NCBI GenBank assembly: GCA_963848195.1
Contig: CAWKCY010000002.1
Span: 58,853-98,852 of the forward strand
Source of the DNA: an uncultured Ignavibacteriales bacterium
Lineage (GTDB): Bacteria > Bacteroidota > Ignavibacteria > Ignavibacteriales > Ignavibacteriaceae
Length of the DNA: 40,000 nucleotides
Direction: 5' to 3'
Of this stretch, positions 9,832-32,602 are shown one piece after another (the first letter of the stretch is position 1; each line of letters opens with the position of its first letter). The notes beneath the pieces are model-generated. The model saw only the letters and a list, made by a program, of their open reading frames with translations, did not search any database and was not told the origin of the DNA. Made by a program: the position numbers and the translations under genes.

Positions 9832-9832
9832 C

Positions 9833-10414: not shown

Positions 10415-10496
10415 TTCAATCCTCTTCTATTTATGTAGGTACAATGTAATTACTTTTTAAATAATATGCAAATAATATTTTATATGTTTATATGCA

Positions 10497-10582
10497 ACAT
10501 AACGAACCGCAATTAAGTTGCAGCCCAGAACAAGAAACTTATTTTTATTACTTCTGCCGAAGAATAAGCAAACCATGCTTAA
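10497..10582 (-). repeat. attC, R'-L' half only (truncated by IS-associated deletion)
   Basis: acATAACgaaccgcaattAAGTTGCAGCCCagaacaagaaac...gcttaacttgattccatttacgg, then the sequence continues as an IS recombinase-gene fragment. Confidence 0.75.
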
Positions 10583-11289
10583 CTTGATTCCATTTACGGA
10601 GAAGATATTCGTCAATATATTTCCTCTTCCGTAAGAATAACAAGAACTACTCACGTGCTGCTATGACTAAGGTTTACAAATTTATGAGACTTACTACTGA
10701 AGAATTTATCAGGCGCTTTCTACAGCATGTCCTCCCTAAAGGATTTGTTAAAGTTAAATACTTCGGGTTGTTCGCCATAAAAAACCGGAATCTTCTTAGC
10801 ATTGTCAGGCAACTATTCGATTCTACTACTATAATTAATACAAAACCTAATGATAAAACCGCTGCAAAAAAAAATCCTTGATAATTTTATGTCCGGTATG
10901 CGGGAATCAAATGAATTTAGTACTTACACTACAGCGTCTTAATTATTACGATAAGTCTCCGCCTTTAAATAAATTTTCCTTTTTTATAAATGATGAACAC
11001 TTAGCTATAAATAAAAATCTTAATAGTTCTCAATAAATTATTTCTAAATATGGAAAATTATCTCAATATAAATGAATTTATAATTACGCTTAAGCTGGTT
11101 ATCGAAAAAAAATCAAATTTCATCCCTTCAATATCCCTCTTTCGGACATATTTTGGTTTATTTCTTCTATATAAAATTTATTGAAATTACAGGTTAGTAG
11201 AGTAAGTCGCTTACGGCTTAGTCCAACACAGGATTATCATATATGGCTATGCCATGCCTCGGCAAGCTTCGGCATGAATCCCTTATAAC
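10583..11289 (+). mobile_element. internal-deletion derivative of the IS91-like element (variant A)
   Basis: 10583-10668 matches the recombinase gene at about 12855-12940. After that come the transposase C-terminus, a roughly 250-bp right end and the terminal hairpin CATGCC-tcggcaagcttc-GGCATG, ending ..cttataac|GTTATAT. Confidence 0.7.
10663..10881 (+). pseudogene. IS91-family transposase C-terminal fragment
   Basis: EEFIRRFLQHVLPKGFVKVKYFGLF aligns with EEFIRRYIQHVLPKGFVKVRYFGLF of the intact copy (24399-25565). Confidence 0.75.
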
Positions 11290-11308
11290 GTTATATGCTT
11301 ACTTAACA

Positions 11309-12397: not shown

Positions 12398-12409
12398 AAT
12401 GGATTTAAG

Positions 12410-12608
12410 TAATTTTTAGCAAGTAGGCGTTGTTGCTAAGCCGCCGCCCAAAACAACAATGCCAAATTTGTTAATTAAATTTTATGTTTAGAAAAACTTT
12501 TAACTATTGAATCAAGTTGAACAAGTTAGCCGAAGCGGAGTACCTTACATTAAAATTTATAAAATGCCGAATGCGTAAGAAGCGGTCGGCTTGAGCAACT
12601 TGTTGAAC
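12410..12608 (-). repeat. attC (non-canonical R' end) of the higBA-like cassette, separated from it by the IS
   Basis: ..cgttgttgCTAAGCCGCCGCCCaaaacaacaatgcc...aaaatgccgaatgcgtaagaaGCGGTCGGCTTgagcaactt GTTGAAC (12602-12608). Confidence 0.7.
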
Positions 12609-14320: not shown

Positions 14321-14324
14321 TTAG
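13630..14324 (+). pseudogene. IS91-family Y2 transposase, N-terminal half with an internal stop, 3' truncated
   Basis: A Zn-ribbon (CNSCSYYHYSFHSCGNRSCNNCQ) and the HUH region (LHTW...HPHIHYLITGGGL) are split over ORFs 13630-13986 and 13995-14324. Confidence 0.75.
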
Positions 14325-14347
14325 GGCACATGTTTGTGAAAAGTTTA

Positions 14348-14623
14348 TTATCTAATATTTAATTGGAGTTTCTTTCCAATTGCTTCAAGGTAATTTTTTA
14401 ATGTTGATATTCTGATGTCTTCTGAATGGTTTTCAATTCTTGATATTGCTGATTTTTTTGTTTTTAATTTGCGGGCAAGTTCTTCCTGGGTTATTCCAGC
14501 TTCTTCTCTCGCTTTTCTTAAAGCAATACCTATTTTGAAGTTATCGTATCCGGTTTCAAAATCTTTTGCAAACTTTTTACTCTTTAATTTTCTTTTTTCT
14601 ATATATATTTCTAAATCATCCAT
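14348..14623 (-). CDS. XRE-family HTH antitoxin (HigA-like)
   Basis: 91 aa with the [35 protein letters not shown]. Sits downstream of, and overlaps, the toxin gene. Confidence 0.8.
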
Positions 14624-14969
14624 TTCTTTTACTCCTATTTATATATTCTTTCATCCTTTTTTCCGCAGTCTCAATTTCTTTTTTTGGTGTCTTTTGAGTT
14701 TTCTTATGAAATCCATTTGTTAAAACAATAAAATTATTACCATCAAAAAATCCAAGTATTCTAATAGTATCTCTTCCAACTTGAACTCTTATTTCCCATA
14801 AATCAGTTGAAACCAATTTTTTAAAATATTCTTTTGGAATTAAATCTAAGTCTCTAATTATTCTTAAAACCCAAGCTACTTTCTTAGCTTGCTTATCAGT
14901 TAAACTTTCCAAAAACTCTTCAACTGGAGAATCACCTCTTTCGTTTTTGTAAAATATAACTATTTTCAT
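14616..14969 (-). CDS. RelE/ParE-superfamily toxin (HigB / Gp49-DUF891-like)
   Basis: 117 aa with the toxin-first gene order typical of higBA; [42 protein letters not shown]. Confidence 0.75.
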
Positions 14970-15041
14970 ATTACAAAGTTAACATATTCGTTAACGTTTG
15001 CAAATATTAACAAATTGAGGATAAGATTATTTGAATACCAT

Positions 15042-15288
15042 TAGTTCTCAAATAATTATTTTCAAGTATGCAAAAACTTCTCAATACTAATGAATTTATA
15101 ATTACGCTTAAGCTGGTTATTGAAAATAAATCAAATATGATCGCTTCTATATCCTTTCTTAGGACATATCCGGGTTTAGTACTTCTATAAACATTTTATT
15201 GAAATTACAGGTAGTAGAGTAAGTCGCTTGCGGCTTAGTCCAACACAGGATTATGCCTCGGCAGGCTTCGGCATGAATCCCTTATAAC
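15042..15288 (+). mobile_element. right-end fragment of IS91-like variant A
   Basis: About 250 bp nearly collinear with 11025-11289, ending ATGCC-tcggcaggcttc-GGCAT gaatcccttataac|GTTATG. Confidence 0.7.
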
Positions 15289-15289
15289 G

Positions 15290-16813
15290 TTATGTTTTTA
15301 CTTTACTTATTTGAGAAACATTTGATAATAAATCTTTAACGATATTGTTTGCTTCAGAAATAATTGCTTCCGGATATTTCATTATCCCTAATAATTTAAT
15401 GGCATTACCAGATGAACAAGGTCCTTCTTTAATTTTATAATTAAAAAAGATTTTACCGTTTTCCACTTGCTCACTAAAATGAAACATCTTAAAATTATGT
15501 TCTAGTAAATCTTGTAATTCAACGTCGTGTGTAGTAACAAATACTTTATTATTTATATCAAGATATTTCAAAACAGCAGTAGAAGAAGCAAGTCTCTCAA
15601 TTTTGTTTGTTCCTCTCAATATTTCATCAACAAGAAACAAAATAATTCTTCTTTCCTTCCGACAATTTTATAAAATTATTTAGCGATTCTATTTCAACAA
15701 AGAAATAACTTTTTCCTTCTTCCAATTCTTCATTTCTACGGATTGATGATTAAACAATAAGTTTTGGAGTGACTATTTCATTAGCTAAACCAAAATACAC
15801 TGACTGTGAAAGAATAATATTTATTCCTACTGTTTTAATAAAAGTTTTTTGCCAGACATATTTGACCCAGTAATCAAAACAGAATCTTTTATATTTTCTA
15901 CAGTATTCGATACAGCATTCTGAACCAAAGGATGATATAAATCCCGGAAATTTATCTCATCACATTAGTAAAGGTCGGGGTTGTATAAAATGGAATTTCT
16001 TCTAAATAAGAAGCGATAGATATCGAAGTATCGAGACTGGCTACATTTTCAAAAACAGAGCGTATATCATCTTGTTTTTTTATCAGAGTATTAACCGAAC
16101 GATAATATGCAATTATATCAAACAATAAAAACATATTTAGGTATTCTATTACAGCAAGTGCAAGTTCATTCAATGATAATTTGTCAATAACAAAAAAACC
16201 TAGTTTCTTTTTAAGTGATTTTAATAAGTACCTTTTTTCTTTTAGGAATTCAACCTCATCGATTACAATATTAGTTTTTATTTTACTTAATGAGATAGCT
16301 GATATTATTAAAGAATTAAGACTGGAAAAGCCGGTAAAATATTCATAAATCTTTTTTGAAAATATTTTATTAAGAATAAGATTGGTTAATAAAATGGCTA
16401 ATGAAACAAAAAGAAATACCATTTATAGAAATAAAAAGAAGAGAAATTATTGAAAGAAGTGAGCATAAATAAAAAAGCGGATAAAACTTTGTATTAGGAA
16501 GATCTTTACTTAAAACTAAATACGATGTAAAGTAAGATTCTGTACCGGATAATCTAAAAAGATTTATCTGAATACTTTCTCTTAATTCTTTATTCTTTTT
16601 AAGGTGGGAAACTAATTTATATCTCTTTTCAAGAATTTTTTCATCGCTTTCATATTTATGTAAAAGATAATATAAATATTGTTGACTAATACCAGATATA
16701 TTTCTATCAATTTTAGCAAAAACTGAATCGATATCTAAATCATTCCAGGTTTTATCATCAACATATTCGTCATCACTTTTCTTTGCCAATAAATTATAAT
16801 ATGAAGAAATCAA
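15290..16813 (-). pseudogene. MutS-domain-V-type ATPase with N-terminal membrane region (MutS-related, non-MMR), decayed
   Basis: Three ORF pieces. The N-terminus has DDKTWNDLDIDSVF plus TM segments. The gap at 15640-15950 encodes ITGSNMSGKKTF (Walker A) in a broken frame. The C-terminus has FLVDEILRGTN...VFVTTHD. Confidence 0.7.
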
Positions 16814-16848
16814 ATCATAATTTCTATGTTTATCTATTTGTTTTCCCC

Positions 16849-16887
16849 ATTATGCCTCGGCAAGCTTCGGCATGAATCCCTTATAAC
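16849..16887 (+). mobile_element. solo terminal hairpin of IS91-like variant A
   Basis: ttATGCC-tcggcaagcttc-GGCATgaatcccttataac, immediately followed by GTTAGGT (16888-16894), the R'' box of the upstream cassette. Confidence 0.6.
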
Positions 16888-17054
16888 GTTAGGTGCATTT
16901 TTATTACACAAAGTAATGATATATTTTTCTATTTGTTAATAGCTATAGTAATGTTAAAAATCCAATTCCAAAATCAATCAAATCATTATTGTCATCATAA
17001 TATCCTTTATAATGATTTGTTTTTAGATATTGAATCTTTAAAACAAGAGCCCAA

Positions 17055-17591
17055 CTAGGATTTTAAAAATATTTTCGTACCGCAAAAAAATGCAGGGAAG
17101 GTTATCTCCGCATATTTCCAACCAGAATCCATTTCAAGAATATTGAAATTAGGCTCATTATTGCTAAGAATATATCTTGTTGCAGACACACCTATCTTTG
17201 TCCCAATAAATAGTAATAGAGTATTGTTAATATGATAGTTGTAGGAGATACCACCAAATATTCCAAGTCGATGATTATATGTTTTATAAATCCACTTAGT
17301 ATATGAATTATTCGGATATGATGTGAATACATTATTTTTAACATAGTCGAATGTATAATTTAAATCCAAAAGAATCTCAATATTTGAGGTCACATAATAT
17401 CCAATTTCAGGTTCAATTTGAAACTGAAGTTCTTTATAAAAACCAGAGTCATCTGGACCAAATGGTGAATTTGTATTTGAATACGAGAATAAAATATTTC
17501 CACCAATTTCAAAAATTGAATATTTATTTTGAGCATGAGTACTAATAAAAGTAATTATAAAAACCAGAACTACTTTATTTATTAATTTCAT
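17055..17591 (-). CDS. small outer-membrane beta-barrel-like protein (cassette)
   Basis: Start moved to MKLINKVVLVFIITFISTHAQ, a signal peptide; the track start at 17612 is GTG inside the attC. Sequence is beta-strand-rich. Confidence 0.6.
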   Translation of the reverse strand: MKLINKVVLVFIITFISTHAQNKYSIFEIGGNILFSYSNTNSPFGPDDSGFYKELQFQIEPEIGYYVTSNIEILLDLNYTFDYVKNNVFTSYPNNSYTKWIYKTYNHRLGIFGGISYNYHINNTLLLFIGTKIGVSATRYILSNNEPNFNILEMDSGWKYAEITFPAFFCGTKIFLKS

Positions 17592-17610
17592 ATTATTATC
17601 CCTTATTTGC

Positions 17611-17931
17611 ACCCTACGGCTTTGCGGCTAAGGCGCAGCCCAGAACAGCAATGCCGCTTTAGTTAAATAAATTTTACAATTAAAAAAATCTTTCATAACT
17701 GAACAACGTTGAACAAGAAACTAAGCACGGAACGACAAACTTAAAAACCTAAAATTGCCGAGAGCGAAATCGCTGTCGTCTTGAATACCCCCAAAAGGCA
17801 ACTTGCCTTTTCTCATTAAAACATTGACATCCAAATATGTATGTTGTCAAACTAAGCAATTTTTAAACTATTCGATTTTAGTCTAAAAATGCACTTTCCA
17901 CAAGGATGTCATTAGCAGCCGCGGGTTAGGC
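17611..17931 (-). repeat. attC carrying a roughly 130-bp internal insertion
   Basis: acCCTACggctttgcggCTAAGGCGCAGCCCagaacagcaatgcc ... gagcgaaatcGCTGTCGTCTTga, then [17776-17908], then attagcagccgcggGTTAGGC (17925-17931). Confidence 0.65.
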
Positions 17932-17944
17932 TACATTTGATATA

Positions 17945-18592
17945 TTAGAAAGCATATCCTACACCAGCTAAAATTTGTACCGTAAAGTATTCTTGATGGT
18001 AATCATCTAAATCCCTTATGCCTTTATCAAACCATATTGAATGAGTATATCTAAATTTTAATTTGGAGGTAAAGAAAAAATAATTTTTGCTTCCAATTAT
18101 TGGAATAGAAAATGCTGCAAACCCATTTACGCCCAAACCGGAAGACGCTAATTTATCATAAAGCACCGTATCTACATTTAATATTCTATTTACAATTATA
18201 AAAGATGGACCAATTCCATAAGAAAGGTAATTATTAATTTTAGCTATATAATCTATATCAAAGTTATGATTAACGAGTTTTATATTTCCCCAATACGGTG
18301 GTGGTGGTGGGTCTGGGCCACCACCGGCTCTTATAAATTCTATAATATTATCTTTGGTGATTTCTTGATAACTATATTCAAACATTAAGTTTAGACCAAA
18401 TAAATTTTCTTTTTGGAAACTTAAATCATACAATAAAAAAGATTGGAATTTTTTATCTCCCATTATTATTGTTGAATTTTCAGAATTACTTAAATAATAA
18501 CCATAACCAACATTTAGACTAATTTTATTTTGTGAGAAGATTATTGAACTACTAAGTAAAAAGATTATTGAGAATAAAAATATTTTTGCCAT
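17945..18592 (-). CDS. outer-membrane beta-barrel-like protein (second gene of a two-gene cassette)
   Basis: Signal peptide ..SSSIIFSQ, C-terminal GVGYAF, and an internal GGGPDPPPPPYWG loop. Confidence 0.6.
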   Translation of the reverse strand: MAKIFLFSIIFLLSSSIIFSQNKISLNVGYGYYLSNSENSTIIMGDKKFQSFLLYDLSFQKENLFGLNLMFEYSYQEITKDNIIEFIRAGGGPDPPPPPYWGNIKLVNHNFDIDYIAKINNYLSYGIGPSFIIVNRILNVDTVLYDKLASSGLGVNGFAAFSIPIIGSKNYFFFTSKLKFRYTHSIWFDKGIRDLDDYHQEYFTVQILAGVGYAF

Positions 18593-18918
18593 TACTTCAC
18601 TAATAACAAGTTTTTTGTGGTTTTTGAATAAAACGCGCTATTTACACCTTTTAATTCAATTGTATAAAAATAGACACCTTCAGAAAAGTTAGAAGCGTCA
18701 AAATTAACTTCATAAGTTCCGGCATTCTGTTCCTTATCAACTGGAGTTAATATTATTGTGTTATAACTATTTTCAATTGTTAATTTTACCATTGATATTT
18801 CTGGTACTGAATACCTTATCCCTATTATCCCTATGGAAGGGTCATCAAGTATAGATGATTTACAACCAAATAATATTATAGCAAATAATAATATTGTTGT
18901 AAAAGAAAATATTTTCAT
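18592..18918 (-). CDS. small lipoprotein with a T9SS-CTD/FlgD-Ig-like beta-sandwich
   Basis: Lipobox LFGC. The C-terminus AGTYEVNFDASNFSEGVYFYTIELKG...KNLLLVK resembles Por_Secre_tail domains. Confidence 0.55.
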   Translation of the reverse strand: MKIFSFTTILLFAIILFGCKSSILDDPSIGIIGIRYSVPEISMVKLTIENSYNTIILTPVDKEQNAGTYEVNFDASNFSEGVYFYTIELKGVNSAFYSKTTKNLLLVK

Positions 18919-18955
18919 TATTCACTCTTTATTGTTTAGAATATTTTACTTTGTA

Positions 18956-19188
18956 GCCTAACGAACCGCAATTAAGTTGCAGCCCATAACAAAAAACTTT
19001 TATTTATTACCTCTGCCAAAGATTTAGCAAACTGTGCTTAATTTTCCATTTACGATAAGCACAGTTTGCAAGACTATTAATTAATTTGACTACGTTGAAC
19101 AAGATACTTTTTGCGGATCATCTACCTTCAAAATCTCTAAAAAGCCGAATGCGCAAAATGCTGTCAACTTAAAATTGCTTTGTTAGGT
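18956..19188 (-). repeat. attC
   Basis: GCCTAACgaaccgcaattAAGTTGCAGCCC ... 13-bp stem GCAAACTGTGCTT/AAGCACAGTTTGC ... aatgcgcaaaatGCTGTCAACTTaaaattgctttGTTAGGT. Confidence 0.9.
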
Positions 19189-19308
19189 GCTATTTTATAA
19201 TTATTTCTTTTATAAATATTGTTTCTATTTTTTTTACTTATACAATAACATGAAACTCGTGTTTCATGATTCATTCAATTATGTATTGCCTTGGTTTTAG
19301 CCTTTAAT

Positions 19309-19826
19309 TTATAATTGAATTTCTAGAATTATGGTAAGCATGGGCCATTGTTTTAACCCCTCCCCAAATTCCAAGTAAAAATTTTCTCTGAATTCAATTT
19401 GGATATGATGAAAAATTCCACCCATACCAACATGTATGTCAAAAGGAAACATGATGGTAGGGGCTATACCTATGCCTCCTTGAAAAAAGATATTGAAATT
19501 ACGAGTTCCCGGAATAAATTTAATTCCAGAAGAAATTTTAGGGACAACAACATGTTCATGATCCCAATTTGTATAATAAAGAAGAAGCTCTAAAGGTATA
19601 TGAACAAGTTTACTTTTATGTAGGTTGATTGAGCCACCGATAACAGGGTAAAAACCATAAAGATCATGTAATTCAGGTTCAAAGAATTGATAACCCAAAA
19701 AAAGGATAATGTTATAATCGTTAGCTTTAATCGAATCAGCTCTCTGATCATCTAAGTTTTGTGATTTTAAAAAACTAAAGGCTTGAAAATTACAAATAAT
19801 GGAAAAAATGATGAATGATATTTCAT
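19309..19826 (-). pseudogene. small beta-barrel-like envelope protein with a frameshift just after the start codon
   Basis: The track ORF extends through the attC. The only ATGs (19826, 19844) are in the +1 frame. One extra A in AAA (19821-19823) would give MKISFIIFSIICNFQAFSFLKSQ.., a signal peptide. Confidence 0.5.
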
Positions 19827-19869
19827 TAAAGGACCCCTTGACATTAAATTTATATAATATTTGTATGGC

Positions 19870-20058
19870 ACCTAACGTGGCGCGTTTTACCCGCCGCCCA
19901 AAGTAGCAACGCCAATTAGAATTGAACTGCCGATAATCTGAAAAGTGATCGCTAAGTCCGGACACTTTGAACAAGTTTGCCGAAACGGAGCAGTTTTACC
20001 GAAGACCTTTGAAATGCCGAACGCGAAATCGCGGTCGGGTAGAAACGCATGGTTATAT
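19870..20058 (-). repeat. attC (GC-rich stem subtype)
   Basis: aCCTAACgtggcgcgtttTACCCGCCGCCCaaagtagcaacgcc ... aaatgccgaacgcgaaatcGCGGTCGGGTAgaaacgcatgGTTATAT. Confidence 0.85.
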
Positions 20059-20064
20059 GCAATC

Positions 20065-22164
20065 TTATTTAATTAATAAGAGTTTCTTTGTTTCTAAAAA
20101 TTCTCCGGCTGTTATTCTGTAAAAATAAACACCACTTGGAATACCAACTGCTTTCCATAATGTTGTGTAAGTCCCTGCACTAATATACTGCGACACTAGC
20201 TTTGCTACCTCTTGACCTAGACTGTTGAAAATATTTAGTGTAACATAAGATGCTTTAGGAAGTGAGAATTTTATTGTTGTACTTGGATTGAATGGATTTG
20301 GATAATTTTGTTCAAGAGAAAAACGAGAAGGTAACTGCTTCAATTTTTCATCGATTGATGTAATTATTTCAGAAATGGAGCGTTTCCATACACCTTTGTT
20401 TGTTCCAACAAACAGATTAGAACCGGATATGGCAAGAGAACTAATTATTCCTTTATTTGAACACTCATCGATTGAAATCCAGTTAACCCCGTGGTTTGTA
20501 GAATAAAAAATACTATTAGAACATCCGGCAAATATTATTGTATCAACTACAATAAGAGCTTTAATATTCAAATCAGTAATACCACTATTAACCTGTTGCC
20601 AGTTCATCCGTCATCTGAAGAAATGAATACACCACTACTTCGAGTACCAGCATATAAATTTTTGCCGGCTAATGCTATGGATTGGATCAATAAGTCTGAC
20701 AAACCGTTATTTATTTCGGTCCAGTTATTACCATTATCGGAAGTAACAAAAACGCCATCTCCATATAACCCTGCAAAAATCTTTGTATCCTTTACAGCCA
20801 TGGAGGAAACATCTGCGCCTATGTTCCCTAATCCATTGCTGGCAACAGACCAAAATTCTCCGTTGTTTGTTGAACGATAAATGCCTCTTGAGGTGCCTGT
20901 GTAAAGATCTTTTCCACAAACAACCATTGCACTGATGTTCCAATATTTTTGTATACCTGAATCTGATTCCACCCATGATATACCGTTATCCTTTGAACGA
21001 TAAATATGACCATCCAAATAGCCGGCCAAAATAATTGTATCCACATCGTTATCATAAAAACAACCAATTGAATTAACATCAGAATTTCTTAAACCATCAT
21101 TGATATATGTCCAGGTATCACCGCCATCGCTGGTTACAGAAATTCCATCCCCATAAATTCCTGCATAAAGATTACCTCTGTTATTTGGATTATTATCCGC
21201 ATAAAGAACTTGAATATCTGCGTAAATAAGTCCATTATTAAAAGGTACCCAATTTGAACCATTGTTGGTCGAAAGAAAAATACCACCGTATTCAGTTCCG
21301 GCAAAAATATTATCATCCTTAACCACAAGTGCCAAAACATTTTTATCTGTTAATCCGGTACTTATACTTTTCCAGTTATTCCCGTTATCAGTAGAAACAA
21401 ATATTCCTTGAGCCCGGACACCTCCTGCATATAGTTTGTTATTACTTACGGCAAGAGCCAAAATTTGATTTGAGACTAAACCTAATACTATCCAATTTCC
21501 ATCACCTTCAGAATATTGATAGACACCGGTATCAGTTCCAACGAAAAGATTTGTACCATCTGTAATCATCTGTACGAATGCCTTTATCAAGTAGACCAAT
21601 GTTATTCCAACTTTTACCTTGATCAGATGATTGAAAAATGCCTTCGTATAATCCAACATAGATTTTATTTTCTATAACGACAATAGAAGAGATAATAGAA
21701 GCATCCGGCATACCATTGCTGGCTTTCGTCCAGCTTTTTCCGCAATTTGACGAAATGAAAAGTCCATTGAACCATGTCCCCGCAAAAATAGTTGAGTCAC
21801 TAATTGCAACTGATGAGACGATGTAATCCAAAACTGTATCCATAGGTTCCCACTCATTACCTTTATTGGTTGAAAGATAAGCGCCTTCCCAAGTACCGGC
21901 AAAAATGATTGAGTCATTTATAGCTAAACTATTGATATAAAGATTTGCCAGACCGTTACTTCTCGATGTCCAATTTTCTCCATTATTAGGTGATAAATAA
22001 ACACCAGTACCAAATGAACCTGCAAATAATTCATCGCCATCAATTGCGATACAATGTATATTACCTCCATAGGGCCCGTTAGTATGAATCCATTGTCCAA
22101 ACGATTGGTTCATCATATTAGCTAGTAATAATAACGTTATAAGGGACGTGATAACATTTTTCAT
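20065..22164 (-). pseudogene. BNR/sortilin-type repeat protein with a T9SS C-terminal sorting domain, split by two frameshifts
   Basis: Three collinear ORFs (21532-22164, 20604-21659, 20065-20607). SxDxGxxW repeats run throughout, and one motif (SSDDG|MNW) spans the 20604-20607 junction. The C-terminus has NYPNPFNPSTTIKF...GVYFYRI. Confidence 0.75.
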
Positions 22165-22195
22165 AAAATTAATCCTTAGTTATTATTTTTAAGCA

Positions 22196-22427
22196 ATATA
22201 ACGAACCGCAATTAAGTTGCAGCCCAGAACTAGAAACTTTTATTTATTACTTCTGCCAAAGATTAAGCAAACTGTGCTTAAATTTCCGTTTACGACAAGC
22301 ACAGTTTGCAAGACTATTAATTAATTTGACTACTTTGAACAAGATACTTTAAGCGGATCATCTACTTCAAAAATCTCTAAAAAGCCGAATGCGTAAAATG
22401 CTGTCAACTTAAATTGCATTGTTAGGG
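22196..22427 (-). repeat. attC
   Basis: atATAACgaaccgcaattAAGTTGCAGCCC ... GCAAACTGTGCTT/AAGCACAGTTTGC ... aatgcgtaaaatGCTGTCAACTTaaattgcattGTTAGGG. Confidence 0.9.
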
Positions 22428-22507
22428 CAAATTTCTATATGCAAAATTAATCCTTTATTTTTATATAAATACTTAAATTATTATATAGCAATTTTATGAA
22501 TTAAAAA

Positions 22508-23170
22508 CTAAAAAAGTGTTACTCTAGTTACTCTGGATGAATATCCCACATCTGAACTAATGGAATTATAATAGGATATACTTTTCAGTCCGATTTCCAT
22601 TTCAAATAAATATTGTTGTTTCCTATATTCAGAATAATGCTCGACTCTAATTCTGGACAGATTTATATTAATAATCATATCACATTCAAAATATAGATAC
22701 TGAAGAATATCGGGCGAAAGGTTCAGGTAAAATGGTTTCATGTCTAATGGGAAATGCCAGATAAATGAATTATAGCTAAGTATATGTGAGTCAACAAGAA
22801 TTTCTTTAAGTGTATCAATAGTATTGTAGTTAATCAGATAAGAGCTATCTAATCTCATCCCTCCAATCTGATCAGTTAAATAATAATATTGATGCAGCAA
22901 ATTAACATTCTCATTGATAATCCATAATCTGAGAGTTGATGAGAAATTTACTGAATCTTTAATTATATATTCCACACTACCTGAGTCTATCCATTTAATG
23001 TTATTATTTTTAAATGTTTGAATATATTTATAATTATACTGACGCCCGTTATTTAGAGGAAACATATCATAATTATAAGTTACAACAGAGGTAGGTGAAT
23101 TACATGATTGAATAAATAACAGAATTCCAGCTATTGACAACCATAACAAAATACCAATTGTTCTTGTCAT
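22508..23170 (-). CDS. hypothetical lipoprotein (cassette)
   Basis: Lipobox LFIQSC. No recognisable domain. Confidence 0.55.
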   Translation of the reverse strand: MTRTIGILLWLSIAGILLFIQSCNSPTSVVTYNYDMFPLNNGRQYNYKYIQTFKNNNIKWIDSGSVEYIIKDSVNFSSTLRLWIINENVNLLHQYYYLTDQIGGMRLDSSYLINYNTIDTLKEILVDSHILSYNSFIWHFPLDMKPFYLNLSPDILQYLYFECDMIININLSRIRVEHYSEYRKQQYLFEMEIGLKSISYYNSISSDVGYSSRVTRVTLF

Positions 23171-23224
23171 AGTTTTTCTCCATTTAATTAAATTTAAAAT
23201 AATCTTTGTATATTTTTTATTTAG

Positions 23225-23414
23225 CCCTAACGGCTAAGGTTAAGCTGCTGCCCATAACTACAATGCAACATTTAAAAACCCAAGCCGATGATTTTTAACA
23301 AACTTTTTTATTTAAAAATACTTTAGACAAGATACTTTAATCGGAGCACAAAACTCTAAAATCTGTAAAATGCCGAGTGCGTAAGAAGCAGTCAGCTTAA
23401 ACCTAATGTTGAAC
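23225..23414 (-). repeat. attC, separated from its cassette ORF (25834-26658) by the IS
   Basis: cCCTAACggctaaggtTAAGCTGCTGCCCataactacaatgc ... aaaatgccgagtgcgtaagaaGCAGTCAGCTTAaacctaatGTTGAAC (23408-23414). Confidence 0.8.
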
Positions 23415-23538
23415 TAAGCCGCTAGCGGCAGCCTTACTAATTATCTACCATAAAAAAGCATCCTGCAAATAAAAGTTGGTCATGTCTTTCCAGTAATTTT
23501 TAGATAAATCAATTTTCTCAAATTATAAGGAGGAAGAC

Positions 23539-24402
23539 ATGACACAACTTCGTAAAAAAATGCTCGAAGATATGAAACTCTTCGGCTTATCTGAACGTAC
23601 TCAGGAAACTTACATTTATGCCGTAAGTAAACTTGCACAATATTTTCATAAGTCACCAGACCTCATCTCTGATGATCAGCTTAGAGAGTATTTCCTATTC
23701 CTGAAAGATAAATATGCTCGTAATACTTCCACCATTGCTATCTGCGGTATTAAGTTCTTCTTTGAAAAATCCTTAAAGAAACCATTTAAGATATTCGGCA
23801 TCGTTCGTTCTCCAAAAGTTAATAAGCTTCCCGTTGTTCTTACCAGAGAAGAAGTACAACTGATATTAAAAAACATCCGTACACTCCGCCACCGTGCTTG
23901 TCTTAGCCTTATTTACTCTTGCGGACTTAGATTAAAGGAAGGTGTATCCCTTAAAGTAAACCAGGTAGACAGTAAACGCATGGTTATTCATATTCAGCAA
24001 GCTAAGGGATTAAACGACCGTTATGTTCCGCTTCCTAAAGCAGCTTTAGAAATTCTCCGTGCTCATTATAAAACTCACCGGAATCCTTTACTTGTCTTTC
24101 CTGCTCCGGGTAGAGGAGAAAGTCAAGAATCTAGTTCTACAAAACCTCTGCCGGATAGTTCTATACAAACTGTCTTCCGGAAATCTTTGCTTGAAACCGG
24201 CATCAATAAAGACGCTCATGTTCATACTCTCAGACATTCTTATGCTACTCATCTTTTGGAAGACGGTGTTGATATTAGAATCATTCAGGAATACTTAGGA
24301 CATAACAACATTGAAACTACTATGATCTACACTCATCTTACTCCTCTTATCAAAGATGGAGTTTATAATAAAATAAACTCTCTGATGGATGGCTTAGTAT
24401 GA
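23539..24402 (+). CDS. tyrosine recombinase (phage-integrase family) of the IS91-like element
   Basis: 287 aa with SAM-like N-domain and catalytic residues in [25 protein letters not shown] and TTMIYTH. Confidence 0.9.
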   Translation: MTQLRKKMLEDMKLFGLSERTQETYIYAVSKLAQYFHKSPDLISDDQLREYFLFLKDKYARNTSTIAICGIKFFFEKSLKKPFKIFGIVRSPKVNKLPVVLTREEVQLILKNIRTLRHRACLSLIYSCGLRLKEGVSLKVNQVDSKRMVIHIQQAKGLNDRYVPLPKAALEILRAHYKTHRNPLLVFPAPGRGESQESSSTKPLPDSSIQTVFRKSLLETGINKDAHVHTLRHSYATHLLEDGVDIRIIQEYLGHNNIETTMIYTHLTPLIKDGVYNKINSLMDGLV

Positions 24403-25565
24403 TTGCTTTATCTGATATCCTTCAGACATACGGACTGTCTTATTTGGAAAAGTATTCAGCTTCAATGCCCTATAATCATAAAGCAGCAATCCGTAATATT
24501 CTTCAATGCCGGACTGAAAAACTTGGCGGTCAGGCTTATTATTGTGATAACTGCAAACAGTACCGTTATAGCTATCATTCATGCGGTGACAGAAACTGCA
24601 ATAAATGCCAGTGTGATAAAGCTAAAGAATGGTTTAGTAAAACTTCTCAGCTTCTTCTTCCCCTTACTCACTTTTTAATTACCTTCACCATGCCCGATAT
24701 TTTAAGACAGCTTACAAGAGCTAACCAGCTTCTATTTTACAATATACTTTTTAAGGCTGCTTCAGCTTCGCTGCAAACTTTAGCTTGGGACTCAAAATAT
24801 GTCGGAGGCAGAATTGCTATGATGGCCGTTCTGCATACCTGGACAAGAACTCTTAACTACCATCCACATCTGCACTTTATTGTTCCCAGTGGTGGCCTTT
24901 GGGATGATGGTAATCTCTGGCTGCAAAGCAGTGAGAAATTTCTTGTGCCTGTTTGTGCATTAAGTAAACTCTTTCGTGCTCAAATGCAGAAGCGGATTAA
25001 AAACAAGGCTCCTGAATTATATAATTCCATTCCAAATAAAGTCTGGAATCAAAAATGGGTCGTGCACTGTAAAGCTGTGGGAACCGGACAGAAAGCTGTG
25101 CAGTATCTTTCCGAATATGTTTTTCGTCCCGCTATAAGTAATAACAGGATAATAAACATGGATAATGATTTTGTTACATTCAGCTACAAAGACAGTAAAA
25201 CTCAGTTTAAGAAAACAATGAAACTTATTCCGGAAGAATTTATCCGGCGTTATATTCAGCATGTGCTGCCTAAAGGTTTTGTTAAAGTGCGTTACTTCGG
25301 GTTGTTCTCTAATACCAATAGAAAACTTCTTGCTGAAGTTAAAGAAAGATTACCTCAAAATAATTATAATTATCCAAAGAACCCTGAAACCAAACCCGCA
25401 GATGTTAAAACTGCAGAAGTTAAATCAACAACTCATAGAATAATTATTTGTCCTCATTGTAATAAGCCAATGCGGATTATAGGAAGTCTTCCAAAATTAA
25501 TATACAATGATAAATCTCCCCCTTATAATATATTTATCCACTTATACAGCACTTTTAATGGATAG
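24399..25565 (+). CDS. IS91-family Y2 HUH (rolling-circle) transposase with an N-terminal Zn-ribbon
   Basis: 388 aa with CDNCKQYRYSYHSCGDRNCNKCQ, the HUH region LHTWTRTLNYHPHLHFIVPSGG and the Y-x3-Y motif AVQYLSEYVFR. Overlaps the recombinase gene by 4 nt. Confidence 0.9.
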   Translation: MIALSDILQTYGLSYLEKYSASMPYNHKAAIRNILQCRTEKLGGQAYYCDNCKQYRYSYHSCGDRNCNKCQCDKAKEWFSKTSQLLLPLTHFLITFTMPDILRQLTRANQLLFYNILFKAASASLQTLAWDSKYVGGRIAMMAVLHTWTRTLNYHPHLHFIVPSGGLWDDGNLWLQSSEKFLVPVCALSKLFRAQMQKRIKNKAPELYNSIPNKVWNQKWVVHCKAVGTGQKAVQYLSEYVFRPAISNNRIINMDNDFVTFSYKDSKTQFKKTMKLIPEEFIRRYIQHVLPKGFVKVRYFGLFSNTNRKLLAEVKERLPQNNYNYPKNPETKPADVKTAEVKSTTHRIIICPHCNKPMRIIGSLPKLIYNDKSPPYNIFIHLYSTFNG

Positions 25566-25833
25566 ATTTTTTCTGTCTGTGGTAATCCCTAGCCTGAAAA
25601 TGAAATGACTGGTATTATTTCGATAAATACTTTACTGTTTGACTTTTAATTTGTTCTTTATTGTCTTTTTAACTTTTCTTTTCTGTTCTAAAACAAAGTT
25701 TGACAAACCTAATCCTCCATTGAAAACCCAAATAGTTTTCTGAATATGACCTGCATACTGCTATGCCCGGGCTTGTTCAACAACGGTTTGAAACTCGGCA
25801 AGCTTCGCTTCAAACCTTATTTCGTTAGGTTGC

Positions 25834-26658
25834 TTATTGTATAACATATTTTTTTTTAATAAAATCTTTAAATAGTTTCCATGGGCTTTCTTCTCCAATT
25901 CCAAAATAATCTTTTGGAGTATATACTATCTCATCTATAATTGGATAAATAGCAAAATTATTATCTGGCAGCATATGTATTTTATACTGGTAATTATCTT
26001 TTTCTTCTATACGAAATAGACTAACAGGTAAAAAGTAACTACTATCAACTTTGAAATATTGTTCTTCTTTTGCTCCATGAAACCAATGACCGAAAAAACT
26101 TACTGTTAAACTATCACCTCTATTAAAATATTTTTCTCCTTTTATTACATCCTCAATTTCAACAACCATATCTGATTGTCTTAAATTGATTTTTAAATCT
26201 TTAGAGTAATAATTTGATTCATCAAACCTTTTGACCTTTATTCTGAACAAATATGGAACCAATAATAAATCAGCAAAAGCAGAAGAATAATATTCAGTTA
26301 TTTTTTCTCTAATTATTCTAAGTTTTACGGCAGGTTTTTTGTGAACTATTTTATAATTGTTATTGATGATTTCTTCTTCCCATCCTTTATGCAATTTTTC
26401 AAAATAAAAATAATATTCGGTTGGATACTCGCAAATCACGTTATAATATTCAGTTGCAAAATCTTTTATTTCTTCAAAAGTAAAATCTTTTTTCCAACCA
26501 AGTGAATCATTATAAAAGGAGAAGATTTTTTCAGCGTCATCGAAAAAATCAATAACATTTTTTGAATATTGTTCATCTTGAACTTTTTCATAGACTGAAT
26601 TAATTTTCCAACTAAAGAATAAAAGTAATATTGTTAGAAAATACTTATATCTTATCAT
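25834..26658 (-). CDS. hypothetical secreted protein (cassette)
   Basis: 274 aa with an N-terminal hydrophobic signal. No recognisable domain. Confidence 0.55.
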   Translation of the reverse strand: MIRYKYFLTILLLFFSWKINSVYEKVQDEQYSKNVIDFFDDAEKIFSFYNDSLGWKKDFTFEEIKDFATEYYNVICEYPTEYYFYFEKLHKGWEEEIINNNYKIVHKKPAVKLRIIREKITEYYSSAFADLLLVPYLFRIKVKRFDESNYYSKDLKINLRQSDMVVEIEDVIKGEKYFNRGDSLTVSFFGHWFHGAKEEQYFKVDSSYFLPVSLFRIEEKDNYQYKIHMLPDNNFAIYPIIDEIVYTPKDYFGIGEESPWKLFKDFIKKKYVIQ

Positions 26659-26662
26659 AGCT

Positions 26663-26851
26663 ACCTAACGCGGCGCGTTTTACCCGCCGCCCAAAACAGC
26701 AACGCCAATTAGAATTAAACTTCCAATAATCTGAAAAGTGAGTGCAAGGCCCGGTAACTTTGAACAAGTTTGCCAAAACGTAGCAGTTCTGCCGAATACT
26801 TTTGAAATGCCGAACGCGAAAACGCGGTCGGGTAGAAACGCATGGTTATAC
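26663..26851 (-). repeat. attC (GC-rich stem subtype)
   Basis: aCCTAACgcggcgcgtttTACCCGCCGCCCaaaacagcaacgcc ... aaatgccgaacgcgaaaacGCGGTCGGGTAgaaacgcatgGTTATAC. Confidence 0.85.
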
Positions 26852-27323
26852 CTATTTTATTAAACTGGAAATCGTTTTTATTTCTTTTGATAAATTCAAT
26901 ATTTAATTCATTGAGGTTATCTTCATACTTATAAAACTCTTTGTCTAACTCATCCCACTTTTCATTTGCAAAGTTTTCTATTTGTTGAAGTAAGGCAATT
27001 CTTTCATCTCTATCTTTAGGCGCCAGCTTATTAGGGAATTGGCTTATGGCTTTTTGAAGAATTGAAGATGTTCTGTTTGCACCTATAGCTTTTAAAGCTT
27101 CAATTGTCTCGTGAGAATAATCGCCACTGGAATTATAAAAATACTGATTAAAACCGCCATTGTTAACTTCTCTTTCCAGGCACTGATTGTAGTAGAAAGT
27201 TTTTTGAGCTTCCGTTAGCTTTTCCAATCTTTCTCCATATTCGCACAATTCTTCTACATAATTATCAATTTCAATAATTGAATTATTAAGATTATCTGAA
27301 ACAAGTAATTTATCTAAATTCAT
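26715..27323 (-). CDS. DUF4375 / DMP19-like protein (cassette); the annotated 3' end reads through the attC
   Basis: NNGGFNQYFYNSSGDY and the surrounding helices are typical of the DMP19 C-terminal (DUF4375) family. The last roughly 45 codons are encoded by the attC. Confidence 0.65.
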   Translation of the reverse strand: MNLDKLLVSDNLNNSIIEIDNYVEELCEYGERLEKLTEAQKTFYYNQCLEREVNNGGFNQYFYNSSGDYSHETIEALKAIGANRTSSILQKAISQFPNKLAPKDRDERIALLQQIENFANEKWDELDKEFYKYEDNLNELNIEFIKRNKNDFQFNKIGITMRFYPTAFSRSAFQKYSAELLRFGKLVQSYRALHSLFRLLEV

Positions 27324-27404
27324 TTTTATTCTCCGAGTTACGATTATTTAATAAATAAACAATAATATTAAAAATGTATTTTATTCCTTTCATTTTCCCA
27401 ATAG

Positions 27405-27595
27405 GTATAACGAACCGCAATTAAGTTGCAGCCCTGAACTAAAATATTAATTTAATTCTATAAATTTTATAACCTGAAAAAACTTTTTCAGCTTTGACTA
27501 ACTTGAACAAGATACTTTATGCGGATCACCTACTTTAAAAACATCTAAAAAGCCAAATGCGTAAAATGCTGTCAACTTAAATTGCATTGTTAGGC
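27405..27595 (-). repeat. attC of the first cassette
   Basis: GTATAACgaaccgcaattAAGTTGCAGCCC ... hairpin CTGAAAAA-ac-TTTTTCAG ... aatgcgtaaaatGCTGTCAACTTaaattgcattGTTAGGC. Confidence 0.9.
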
Positions 27596-27609
27596 ACTCT
27601 TTGTTATTA

Positions 27610-28404
27610 TTAATTGTTTAGACTATAATCTCTTAATACATCTATATAATCTAAAAACCAATAAGCTTTAGGTACTATAAAAATTCTTACATCAGCAATT
27701 AAACCTATATTAGGTGCATAATAATAATAAAAGTCATCATAACCAGGATAATCTTCTGCTTCCCTTATTCTGATTCTTATTACAAAACAACTAAAGGCTC
27801 CCGCCTTGGTTTTTACAGTATCATTAACAGATATTAATCTTGTATCTAGTGGCTTAATTGAGCTAAATCCCGAAGGACCTAGAAATACAGGACGCGAATC
27901 CCAGGGTTCGTTTAAATTAAATTTTGCAGGTATATAAATATCTTTATTCAATAATGTATCGCCATTTTCATTAAACGCTCCCATACTATAAACACCATCT
28001 TTGCCAATCCAGAAAATTTTATTGAAATTAGTATTTTGATCATTTATATATGAGGCAATGATATGACAAGGATACAAAGTATCATTAAATATAATATTTG
28101 TAGTTTCAATAACTTCGCGCTTATAAATATTTGTTATATTTACGGTATCAAAATTAAAATCAAATGAATTAAAATTTTTATATATCCAATTAGTATCATT
28201 ATTACCAAAAGAGAAAGTGTAATAATTATAATTCCACCAATTACCCTTTTTTGATGGCCAGAGATAGTGAGTATAAACTTTAGCTGTGTCAAGAGTATTA
28301 TAAGATTGCATAGGAGCAACAATATTATTTTCGCATCCTGAAATAATTAGAATCGTGCTTAATAAATTTAAAAAAAGTAATGTATGCCTTAATTTTAAAT
28401 TCAT
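27610..28404 (-). CDS. hypothetical lipoprotein (first cassette)
   Basis: Start moved to MNLKLRHTLLFLNLLSTILIISGC (lipobox). The track start at 28446 overlaps the attI/cassette junction. Confidence 0.6.
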   Translation of the reverse strand: MNLKLRHTLLFLNLLSTILIISGCENNIVAPMQSYNTLDTAKVYTHYLWPSKKGNWWNYNYYTFSFGNNDTNWIYKNFNSFDFNFDTVNITNIYKREVIETTNIIFNDTLYPCHIIASYINDQNTNFNKIFWIGKDGVYSMGAFNENGDTLLNKDIYIPAKFNLNEPWDSRPVFLGPSGFSSIKPLDTRLISVNDTVKTKAGAFSCFVIRIRIREAEDYPGYDDFYYYYAPNIGLIADVRIFIVPKAYWFLDYIDVLRDYSLNN

Positions 28405-28437
28405 AATTTTTTTTATATTATTTTCTATTACTAAAGT

Positions 28438-28616
28438 GCCTAACATATTTATTGAGTTGTTTTACTATCCTTTTATTAATGTCTATATTTAGACATTAAT
28501 GTCTACATATACACATCTTTTTCCCAAATGTCTATATATAGACATATTTAAATGTCTATATATATACATTTTTCAATTTTCGAAGTGACCTCATTTAATT
28601 TCTTTTCCTAAAATAT
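28438..28616 (-). other. putative attI region with the recombination junction G|TTAGGC
   Basis: The minus strand reads ..ctcaataaatatGTTAGGCac (28444-28438). This is the first GTTRRRY downstream of intI, and no attC precedes it. Confidence 0.55.
28479..28569. promoter_or_regulatory. four tandem 18-bp palindromic operator-like sites ATGTCTA-N4-TAGACAT
   Basis: Sites at 28479-28496 and 28528-28545 are perfect. Sites at 28499-28516 (TAcACAT) and 28552-28569 (TAtACAT) each have one mismatch. Confidence 0.6.
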
Positions 28617-28970
28617 TTAAGTTACTATTCTATCTTCAAAACCTAATGCTAATATATCTTTATATGGTAACTCCCACAATTTTAATTCCCTATTCCACTT
28701 TCCACCTGCATTTTTTATCAAACTGCCTATTTTTACTTCGCCGTAATTAACTTTTACATGCAGAATCTTATTTAATTGTATTCTATCACAATTCCTATTC
28801 CAATCCTTTTCGTCTACAATTATTTCAACAGTGGTTAATTTTTTCTTCTTCTCCTCATCAATCCTATATCTAATACATATAAGCTTTTTACCGTATTTTC
28901 TCTCCCAGCTCTTTGTCCCGTTTTGACTCGGGTACAATGTCCTTTTAACTTTCATAAATTTATTTCTCAT
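28617..28970 (-). CDS. conserved small hypothetical protein between intI and attI
   Basis: 117-aa basic protein (..LICIRYRIDEEKKKKLTTVEIIV..GGKWNRELKLWELPY..), starting 38 nt after the intI stop on the same strand. Confidence 0.6.
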   Translation of the reverse strand: MRNKFMKVKRTLYPSQNGTKSWERKYGKKLICIRYRIDEEKKKKLTTVEIIVDEKDWNRNCDRIQLNKILHVKVNYGEVKIGSLIKNAGGKWNRELKLWELPYKDILALGFEDRIVT

Positions 28971-29008: not shown

Positions 29009-29932
29009 CTACAATTTATCTGCTGGACTCTTTACTCCCATTCCTCCTTTTCTCATAACATGAGTATAAATCATTGTGGTATTTAAATCTTCATGGCCAA
29101 GTAATTCCTGAACTGTTCTTATATCATAACCATCTTCTAAAAGATGGGTTGCAAATGAATGACGGAAAGTATGACAACTGCCTTGCTTTTTTATTCCTGA
29201 ATTTTTTATCGCAACTTTCACTACTCTTTGAAGTACACTTTCATCTATATGATGTCTTCGTTTCAATCCTGTCCTTTTATCTACCGATATTTGTGAAGAT
29301 GGAAATACATATTGCCAACCTAATTCTTTATTTGCATTTGGATATTTCTCTTCCAATGCATATGGTAAATAGACTCCTCCCAAGCCTTTTTTGATATCTT
29401 CATTATGTAGATTTTCAACTTTTATTAAATGACGGTTCAATTTATCTTTTATAATTTCCGGTAAAATTGTAACTCGATCTTTACTACCTTTTCCATTCCT
29501 TATATTTACTTGGTTATATTCAAAATCTATATCCTTAACTCGTAGCCTGATACATTCCATTAAACGCAATCCTGAACCATATAATAAATTCGCCATTATC
29601 CAGTTTACTCCCGTCAATTTAGTCATTACAGCTTTCACTTCAGTTTTGGTAAATACAACTGGTAATCTCTTCCCTTTTTTTGCCCAAATTAATTCTAATT
29701 TTTCTAATTCTTTGTTTAATACATGCTTATATAAAAATATTATAGCACATAAAGCCTGGTTTTGAGTTGAACTCGAAACATTTCTTTTTACGGCTAAATA
29801 ACTGATATATTTACTAATTTCATTCGCCCCAAGTAATAAAGGATGTTTTTTTTCATGAAATAAAATAAAATCCCTTATCCAATTAATATAAGTTTCCTCC
29901 GTTCTCTTACTATAATGACTAACTCTCATCAC
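29009..29932 (-). CDS. intI: integron integrase
   Basis: Tyrosine recombinase motifs ([47 protein letters not shown]). Also the IntI-specific insertion ALEEKYPNANKELGWQYVFPSSQISVDKRTGLKRRHHIDESV. Confidence 0.9.
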   Translation of the reverse strand: MMRVSHYSKRTEETYINWIRDFILFHEKKHPLLLGANEISKYISYLAVKRNVSSSTQNQALCAIIFLYKHVLNKELEKLELIWAKKGKRLPVVFTKTEVKAVMTKLTGVNWIMANLLYGSGLRLMECIRLRVKDIDFEYNQVNIRNGKGSKDRVTILPEIIKDKLNRHLIKVENLHNEDIKKGLGGVYLPYALEEKYPNANKELGWQYVFPSSQISVDKRTGLKRRHHIDESVLQRVVKVAIKNSGIKKQGSCHTFRHSFATHLLEDGYDIRTVQELLGHEDLNTTMIYTHVMRKGGMGVKSPADKL

Positions 29933-31412: not shown

Positions 31413-31659
31413 TTTAGCCCATTTAGTATATTGTAAAAAGAAATAAAACCTTCGACAACTTTTAAAAAGCAATTCCCCAACTACAATTCCCAAACTCCAG
31501 ATAAAACTACCTGCCCTGCCGGCCTGCAAAATTCCCCGAAATAAGTACAACCTTTGATTAACATATTTAAAATTTTAATTTTGAAATTAAGATATATTTA
31601 TTTTTTGTTACGGAATTTTGGAACAATACATCAATTGATGGAACCGTTATAGCTCCCTC

Positions 31660-32602
31660 CTAACTCCAAGACAACTCCAAGGTAACTCCAAGATAACTCC
31701 AAGGTAAATCCAAGCTATTCAAATAAAAATCAAACGGATCCTCCTGATCCATATCTATTATCTCCATATCTGCTTTATACATAGTTAATTTTCCGAATCC
31801 TAACTTTCCTCCCTTGTAATACATATAATTTGAAGCACTCGAATCCGGGTTAAGAGGAGATGCATTCTTTGTCATAAAAGTTTGAATTACCTCTCCCTTT
31901 CCCACCTGAAGCTTTTCAAGGTGACCTTCTATTCTGGGAGGCGGCAGCATTTTGGAAGGATCATGATAAAAGTCATTGTCAACTATTTCCGCACCCCTGT
32001 TTTTGTCCACCCTTAAAAGATCCTCCAATTCTAACTTAAAAAATTTCATCAGTCCGCTTACATTGATACCCAAAACATCCGTTTTTACCGGATGAAGCCT
32101 AATCTTTCCTTCAGGAGTTACGCTAACCTCCGATAAAATAGTAAAAGGGATACCCTTCATTTTCCCTTCTTGCTTCAATTTATCTCCTTCAGTACTTACT
32201 TTGATATCTTTTAAAGAAAATCCTTTAAACCCAAAGACGTAACGGTTTAATAAATTGCTTAGACTTTTCATATCTAATGAAATAATTGCATTTTCTAAGC
32301 TTAAAAGAATTCCCCTCATCAAATACCGGATAACCATTTTTTTTGACTGCAATTAATTCCCCCTGAAGCCTTTTTATTTTCATTATAATGTCCGTATCTA
32401 TCCTAAAATTTACATTTTTTATTTCCGTTTGAACATCAGTCCCGTTTATTTGCACCGGGAAATTAGTACTGTCTATTTTCTCATTTTTCTCATTGTTTTC
32501 TCTTATCACTTTTATATCTCTAAAAAAAAGCGCAATTACACAAATTACCAAAAAGATAATAATTATCGGTAAAGAAAACTTTATTATTCTTAGGGGTTCC
32601 AT
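31660..32602 (-). pseudogene. membrane-anchored hypothetical protein split at an A8 tract (or phase-variable / assembly error)
   Basis: ORFs 32225-32602 and 31660-32352 fuse into one roughly 314-aa frame if one A is removed from the homopolymer at 32337-32344. Confidence 0.55.
31661..31715. repeat. five copies of an 11-bp tandem repeat (WAACTCCAAGR)
   Basis: taactccaaga caactccaagg taactccaaga taactccaagg taaatccaagc. Confidence 0.8.

Follow-up and report, generated by a model that had tools for sequence, protein, structure and literature searches.

Between the integrase gene and the first gene cassette of an integron in an uncultured Ignavibacteriales bacterium, four 18-bp palindromes are packed into 91 bp. 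This arrangement raises the question of which protein binds these sites, and whether they serve recombination at the insertion site attI or transcription of the cassettes. Integrons are usually described as having three parts, namely the integrase gene intI, attI and a promoter. The palindromes were pointed out in a preliminary description of the window, the term used here for the whole stretch of 40,000 nucleotides under analysis; all positions refer to it unless a related locus (L followed by a number) is named.

The integron platform

The window contains an integron, with an integrase that scores above the cut-off of an IntI-specific model, cassettes bounded by attC sites and a GTTRRRY junction at attI. 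The integrase gene intI (29009–29932, minus strand) matches TIGR02249 with full-length coverage at 444.4 bits, against a cut-off of 265, and Pfam domains are in agreement. Read along the minus strand, the order is intI, a small ORF, palindromes A, B, C and D, the attI core and the first cassette, and the direction of intI transcription is toward the cassettes. The R box of attI and its crossover, GTTAGGC (28444–28438, minus strand), form the junction with the first cassette. Aligned with loci L001 and L002, the window sequence remains conserved as far as GTTAGGCA and diverges immediately beyond it; this end of conservation marks the attI crossover. The junction at 28438–28444 given in the preliminary description is thus correct, and its placement of the palindromes in the attI region of an integron is supported. 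A putative L box, ACTCAAT (28451–28457, minus strand), is assigned by its position, which matches that of the GTCTAAT box of most related loci.

The attC site of the first cassette (27405–27595, minus strand) is about 190 nt long and is bounded by R'' GCCTAAC (27595–27589) and R' GTTATAC (27411–27405). Its inner arms are complementary, and the same repeat family is found throughout the cassette array; the repeat families D1, D3 and D5 recur across 8–27.6 kb of the window. An Rfam scan of the window returned no match, the attC sites included. The attC sites of the window (8700–27600) are unusually long, at about 190 nt, and highly alike, as in sedentary chromosomal integrons.

Several other features of the region were recorded. 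The first-cassette ORF (27610–28446) is listed with a start ATG that lies across the GTTAGGC crossover. A signal peptide of the lipoprotein type starts at M15 (MNLKL...ISGC), and the real start of this ORF therefore probably lies inside the cassette. A gene pair encoding a tyrosine recombinase and an IS91-family transposase (Y2_Tnp, Zn_Tnp_IS91) is found within the cassette array at 23539–25565. A second, partial and diverged copy lies about 10.8 kb away, at 12487–13619, with an identity of 72–74% between the copies (repeats D4, D8 and D12), and the same gene pair follows the first cassette of L001 (2277–4306 of that locus). At 31650–31715, at least four tandem 11-nt units resembling TAACTCCAAGG cover the 3' end of the minus-strand ORF 31660–32352, over its stop codon.

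Four palindromes next to the attI core

A search of the 40-kb window with ATGTCTANNNNTAGACAT, allowing up to two mismatches, found exactly four matches, all of them inside 28479–28569; shuffled sequences gave a mean of 0.32 sites, and four were reached in 0 of 100 shuffles. Half-site scoring of every 18-mer gave the four sites 14, 13, 14 and 13 of the 14 arm bases, and the next-best score, reached at two places, is 11 of 14 in a stray-copy count that covers these 40 kb (33% G+C) of the source genome. Six of the eight ATGTCTA heptamers of the window fall in the 91-bp array. The four-site array is real and no by-product of AT-rich DNA. These searches returned precisely the four inverted repeats that had been described at the outset, two perfect and two with one mismatch, and within the window no scatter of the motif, which had been named as grounds for rejecting the array, was found. 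The sites are inverted repeats of ATGTCTA without GTTRRRY and are indeed unlike IntI sites, as had been noted.

Palindrome A (28552–28569, ATGTCTATATATATACAT), the farthest from the crossover, matches 13 of 14 arm bases, with one mismatch. Palindrome B (28528–28545, ATGTCTATATATAGACAT) is perfect and starts 24 bp from A. The gap between B and C (28517–28527, minus strand, TTGGGAAAAAG) contains an A-tract, as read from the sequence. Palindrome C (28499–28516, ATGTCTACATATACACAT) again matches 13 of 14 arm bases, with one mismatch, and palindrome D (28479–28496, ATGTCTATATTTAGACAT), which is perfect and nearest to the crossover, starts 20 bp from C. The start-to-start spacings in the window are consequently 24, 29 and 20 bp, and 52 bp separate the start of palindrome D from the G of GTTAGGC. 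The A-run at the B–C gap and a B-to-C spacing of 28–29 bp are kept in L001, L004, L007, L008 and L010, and the A-tract may have a role in bending the DNA.

Related integrons keep the same layout

The preliminary description had proposed looking for the motif beside intI in related genomes. The relatives examined comprise seven IntI proteins with 63–77% identity to that of the window, together with L001, whose partial IntI is 94% identical. Equivalent arrays are kept in these integrons: all eight related integrase loci display the small ORF, phased palindromes and a GTTAGNN core. On all seven fetched contigs, an ORF of 103–131 amino acids directly follows intI and is in turn followed by four or five related palindromes and GTTAGNN. 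The arms differ among these loci (ATGTCTA, ATGGCTA, ATTCCTA, GTTTCTT), and the central CTA-N4-TAG and the layout persist. L001 itself contains intI, the small ORF, four palindromes (three of them perfect, with other central bases) and the same core.

L002 (5840–6390), which is syntenic with the window and covers the same region of a contig as L009, resembles a series of natural decay steps in the module. Here, intI has been lost, the small ORF is frameshifted and, through a deletion between sites A and C, only two of the four sites are left, of which one is perfect and the other decayed.

A scan of one genome per species extended the set to 80 loci with the small ORF from many phyla and classes, including Ignavibacteria, KSB1, Spirochaetes, Chloroflexi, Acidobacteria, Binatia, Nitrospirota, Desulfobacterota, Gammaproteobacteria, Heliobacteria and others. 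The integrase gene lies upstream on the same strand in 13 of the 80 loci and upstream in divergent orientation in 23, three of which contain fragments only, one of them split in two. No intI was found within 3 kb in the remaining 44, in which the small ORF is intact. Strict palindrome counting (at least six of seven arm bases) was dropped as a poor detector with only 4-fold enrichment, and was replaced by repeat-family and consensus scans. Of 76 loci, 63% contain at least three related 18-mers within 200 nt downstream of the small ORF, compared with 14% of 228 control windows, and this 18-mer family is present whatever the position of intI.

In the loci without intI, the genes upstream of the small ORF are unrelated housekeeping genes, none of them recurrent. 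In two such loci, L064 and L029, attC-like repeats that begin with CCTAAC were found downstream; two ad hoc attC detectors were dropped, as both missed the known attC sites of the window. Several genomes contain more than one module with different arms (L068/L075, L062/L074 and L025/L065). In L089, a GIY-YIG endonuclease gene and three tandem repeats of about 100 bp lie between intI and the small ORF (3990–4680), and the small ORF, array and core are intact despite this insertion.

When metagenomes were scanned for a pair of neighbouring palindromes of the window type, 120 matches were obtained, of which only about 19 are integron-array-like and nine have the small ORF within the locus. Most of the 120 lie in unrelated DNA, so that the motif alone is not diagnostic outside its own genome. 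About 70 of them (among L095–L209) share one conserved repeat of about 120 bp, and others include simple repeats. The one locus inspected among these 70, L161, has the repeat (6106–6138) beside ORFs for a copia-type reverse transcriptase and integrase; it is therefore probably a eukaryotic retrotransposon LTR. The likeness of the 120-bp repeat to the integron motif appears to be due to chance.

Arms vary by lineage and the core is constant

The arrays contain two to seven inverted-repeat sites, each of 18 bp. Two 7-bp arms enclose a 4-bp spacer, and its two central positions are occupied by A or T in more than 90% of cases. Start-to-start spacings are mostly 20–21 bp (62 gaps) or 24–25 bp (23 gaps), and a spacing order of ...24, 24, 20, 20 toward the core recurs with unrelated arms in L062, L064, L074, L079 and others. 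The crossover G lies 32–33, 38–42 or 51–54 bp from the start of the last site, in narrow distance classes, partly read by eye, that include unrelated arms. These classes lie about 7 and 12 bp apart, and the helical phase with the core is therefore not strictly conserved across them.

The arms are lineage-specific (GTCTA, GGCTA, TTCCTA, GTTTCT, GCATCT, GCATAT and others), while the core that follows the array, in most loci GTCTAAT-N4-6-GTTRRRY, remains constant. Half-site consensus sequences of 46 loci were curated by eye prior to inspecting the proteins. At these loci, all 146 sites that match the locus consensus in at least 12 of 14 positions lie inside the array (146/146); none was found in the remainder of about 264 kb, which includes the sequence preceding the small ORF and the surroundings of intI.

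Two local variations on this plan were observed. L011 (3342–3500) contains hybrid sites composed of ATGTCTA and TTTCCTT half-sites in A–B, B–B and B–A arrangements, which may mean that specificity is relaxed or dual, or that two proteins bind. In the 51–54 bp class, the extra 12 bp or so between the last palindrome and the core frequently contain a short G+C-rich inverted repeat with a stem of 5–6 bp, such as GCGGAC...GTCCGT or GCCCGC...GCGGGT (L041, L047, L061, L046, L054, L066, L057, L015 and L004); this repeat is absent from the window.

The small basic protein and its family

The ORF between intI and the array (28617–28970, minus strand) encodes a basic protein of 117 amino acids as listed, the proposed binder of the palindromes. 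The family consensus opens with MKIxR, and the true start is therefore probably M6, at 28955. The 117-residue ORF has no match in Pfam or NCBIfam and belongs to no named family there, and a homology search with the single sequence retrieved only four relatives. A family profile was then built from the aligned ORFs that adjoin intI in the IntI relatives. The profile search retrieved 2,650 proteins. With HMMER run in full against 1.84 billion cluster representatives, 2,906 passed a threshold of E <= 1e-3, and 1,583 passed one of E <= 1e-10. All family members are small, and the source names listed for them all read 'hypothetical protein'. They share the motifs C[VI]RYRYDE, TVE[IL]IV, AGG[KR]WN and LGLEDRIV and many conserved basic residues.

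The AlphaFold2 model (pLDDT 88.8) has two domains, the N-terminal one with a predicted strand-helix-strand-strand order. Foldseek searches against the PDB with the whole model, or with the N-terminal domain alone, gave no significant match, and no recognised DNA-binding fold was found in the protein. Likewise, the protein showed no resemblance in sequence or fold to Xis, to Cox or to the arm-binding domains of integrases. The C-terminal domain resembles DUF5710, as judged from weak sequence and fold matches. The Pfam model of DUF5710 (PF18974) weakly matches 40 of 81 family members, with a best E value of 1.8e-5, and gives no match to the window protein even at E <= 1; in a BFVD fold search, the top matches were DUF5710 proteins over about 45–55 residues, with a probability of 0.97–0.99 and E > 0.1.

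Which protein binds the palindromes

On comparative grounds, the four palindromes most likely bind the small protein encoded just upstream, the same 28617–28970 product that had been put forward as a candidate at the outset, and one dimer of it would occupy each 18-bp site. The comparison also supports the earlier view of the array as being of the cooperative type for a dimeric DNA-binding protein.

Part of the evidence comes from covariation between the protein and its putative sites. At all 24 loci with G at half-site position 1 (24/24), residue 17 of the protein, which lies in the PGQxGTK loop, is K or R, and at all 8 loci with A there (8/8) it is N. Pairing of K or R with G, and of N with A, is classical for amino acid–base contacts. 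When each 60%-identity cluster is counted once (28 clusters), the association holds in 13/13 and 5/5 (Fisher p = 1.2e-4, deeper kinship being uncorrected). Where position 3 is G, residue 46 is T, and with other bases there it is K (p = 0.0026 with each 60%-identity cluster counted once and the same uncorrected deeper kinship); residue 10 is L with CA at positions 2–3. The residue–base signal is confounded by shared ancestry, and single-linkage clustering at 50% leaves it beyond testing; the covariation is supportive of the small protein as the binder, not conclusive.

The palindromes could alternatively be extra sites for IntI, a counterpart of DR1 and DR2 in attI1, with the small ORF unrelated to them. 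Their position upstream of the attI core is that of DR1/DR2 (PMC8946536), and the half-site GTCTA resembles the L box GTCTAAT of many related cores. The small protein is nonetheless preferred to IntI as the binder because the arms vary widely by lineage while the IntI core boxes stay the same, because array and ORF persist together without intI and decay together in L002, because modules with different arms coexist in single genomes, and because residues of the protein covary with the arm bases. Moreover, crossover sites of tyrosine recombinases have spacers of 6–8 bp, and the 4-bp spacer of the palindromes is too short for such a site. Binding by IntI is thus improbable. The DR1/DR2-type interpretation was also set aside on the form of the sites, which lack likeness to IntI boxes (no GTTRRRY) and are inverted rather than direct.

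Folded single strands are used in integron recombination, and each palindrome could form a 7-bp stem with a 4-nt loop, either in RNA (the 3' UTR of the small ORF or the leader of the cassette mRNA) or in single-stranded DNA like attC. The substitution pattern makes such hairpins the least probable of the explanations considered, and we give them almost no weight. The 204 sites depart from their locus consensus in 345 instances; arm complementarity is lost in 308 of these and retained in only 18. The sites decay one arm at a time, which argues against hairpins. Furthermore, all copies at a locus have one arm sequence in common, which hairpins would not need, and the hybrid sites of L011 combine two different half-sites.

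Recombination or transcription

Small ORF, array and attI core constitute a single conserved platform module, and the comparison shows its tight link to attI, its lineage-specific sites and the residue–base covariation. To the further step, with the palindromes as the site array of the small basic protein and an accessory function at attI, we give an even chance. The protein would coat the array on one side of the attI core, and the coated array may serve attI as an architectural or accessory arm and in this way promote or gate attI x attC recombination by IntI. Parallels are known from other site-specific recombination systems, and a role in recombination rather than an effect on transcription is inferred. 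An accessory arm is favoured because the distances between array and core are discrete across unrelated arms, because the array is always on the platform side of the core and follows attI, not intI, when the orientation of intI changes, and because no site occurs in the promoter regions upstream of the ORF or intI. Accessory sites of attI had been offered in the preliminary description as the alternative to a repressor-controlled cassette promoter, and this alternative fits better, given the narrow crossover distances kept by wholly different palindromes.

The main competing explanation is transcriptional: on the array, the protein would repress an overlapping cassette promoter or block read-through into the cassettes. 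We consider this possible but rather unlikely. The small ORF is always oriented toward the cassettes, and in the window no terminator-like hairpin lies between it and attI. When the ORF is extended to its next stop codon, its 3' end runs into the first sites in several lineages, and a transcript of the ORF must therefore enter the array. In addition, the ORF is intact in the 44 of 80 loci without intI within 3 kb, where a factor with no task but recombination should degenerate. Its survival is at least as compatible with a role in cassette expression as with one in recombination, unless IntI is supplied in trans.

The promoter originally proposed for this control consists of TAGACA (28534–28529), a 17-nt spacer and TATATG (28511–28506) on the minus strand. 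These elements are present as described, in the window and also in L001, but the promoter scan did not list them. The proposed promoter is weak: TAGACA matches five of six positions and TATATG four of six, without T6, of a sigma-70 consensus that may not be that of this phylum. Its 17-nt geometry is due to the 28–29 bp B–C gap of the Ignavibacteria-type arrays, which is missing from most lineages; most other arrays, with 20–24 bp, cannot form it. Neither a promoter nor a roadblock needs the narrow crossover distances. Upstream of intI or the small ORF, no copy with at least 12 of 14 arm bases was found in the window or in 45 other loci, and a protein without a site at its own or the intI promoter is not a classical autoregulated repressor. 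A repressor-controlled cassette promoter is thus left without positive evidence, though transcriptional control is not refuted. A LexA (SOS) box at the intI promoter was considered and rejected, as the array is downstream of both intI and the small ORF. By analogy with Cox-type proteins, which do both, roles in recombination and in transcription are not mutually exclusive.

Comparison with known systems

Accessory elements next to a recombination core are familiar from Xer recombination. The sites cer and psi have accessory sequences with PepA, ArgR or ArcA, accessory proteins that are not recombinases and that shape or license the reaction, and XafT of the TLC phage is an element-encoded activator. 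The likeness lies in an Xer-related tyrosine recombinase and a core flanked on one side by an accessory region. The factors of cer and psi, however, are host proteins, and XafT is a recombinase-binding factor without a site array, whereas the factor proposed here would be encoded by the element and would have its own phased, lineage-specific sites.

Recombination directionality factors (RDFs) such as lambda Xis, P2 Cox and L5 gp36 occupy site arrays in att arms, and those of the Cox type are also transcriptional repressors. The integron module is similar in having a small basic protein encoded beside the integrase gene and several close, phased sites that adjoin the core. It differs in that RDF sites are usually direct repeats, not palindromes, and in the lack of sequence or fold similarity noted above between the small protein and the Xis or Cox families. 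To our knowledge, integron integrases have no arm-binding domain, and we know of no RDF for integrons.

Within integrons, a parallel in layout is attI1, which likewise has extra sites on the intI-proximal side of the L–R core, beside the GTTRRRY crossover. Its DR1 and DR2 favour attI x attC recombination, are proposed to be topological filters and may replace host factors (PMC8946536). DR1/DR2, however, are two direct repeats bound by IntI1, whereas the present arrays consist of two to seven inverted repeats unlike IntI boxes, with arms that vary by lineage beside a constant core and a dedicated gene between intI and attI. The 'reverse' integrons of Treponema, in which intI is transcribed toward attI, share with the window an intI oriented as the cassettes (PMC3607928). 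By contrast, no gene or palindrome array between intI and attI is described for them (PMC3607928), and the present module occurs with intI in either orientation.

Implications for integron biology

A search of the full-text literature found no description of the small protein or of palindrome arrays at attI; most subscription journals are outside its coverage, so that an earlier account is possible. The recurrence across phyla of a protein, a site array and an insertion site together points to an undescribed extra part of the gene-capture machinery. More broadly, and tentatively, with confidence clearly below even, we propose that in a large environmental clade of chromosomal integrons from many phyla the platform has a fourth component beside intI, attI and Pc. 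This would be an element-encoded DNA-binding protein with a lineage-specific array beside attI, acting as a licensing or specificity factor for cassette insertion.

If true, a single integrase could address each of several arrays in the same genome separately, and the protein would qualify as an accessory factor of the sort that has long been presumed to take part in attI x attC recombination in sedentary integrons. The integrase of Vibrio cholerae barely uses its own attI in E. coli, and an unknown accessory factor has been sought (PMC8946536). An element-encoded protein with an array beside attI is a concrete candidate for such a factor outside class 1 integrons, and one that is directly testable with one small protein and a DNA fragment of less than 200 bp.

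The candidate occurs in thousands of environmental integrons, and the module offers a practical marker for attI sites, which are otherwise hard to predict. The finding also suggests that a functional entry site is retained in many cassette arrays without an integrase gene. The lineage-specific arms and their proteins would, finally, constitute a natural set of orthogonal protein–operator pairs with a readable recognition pattern.
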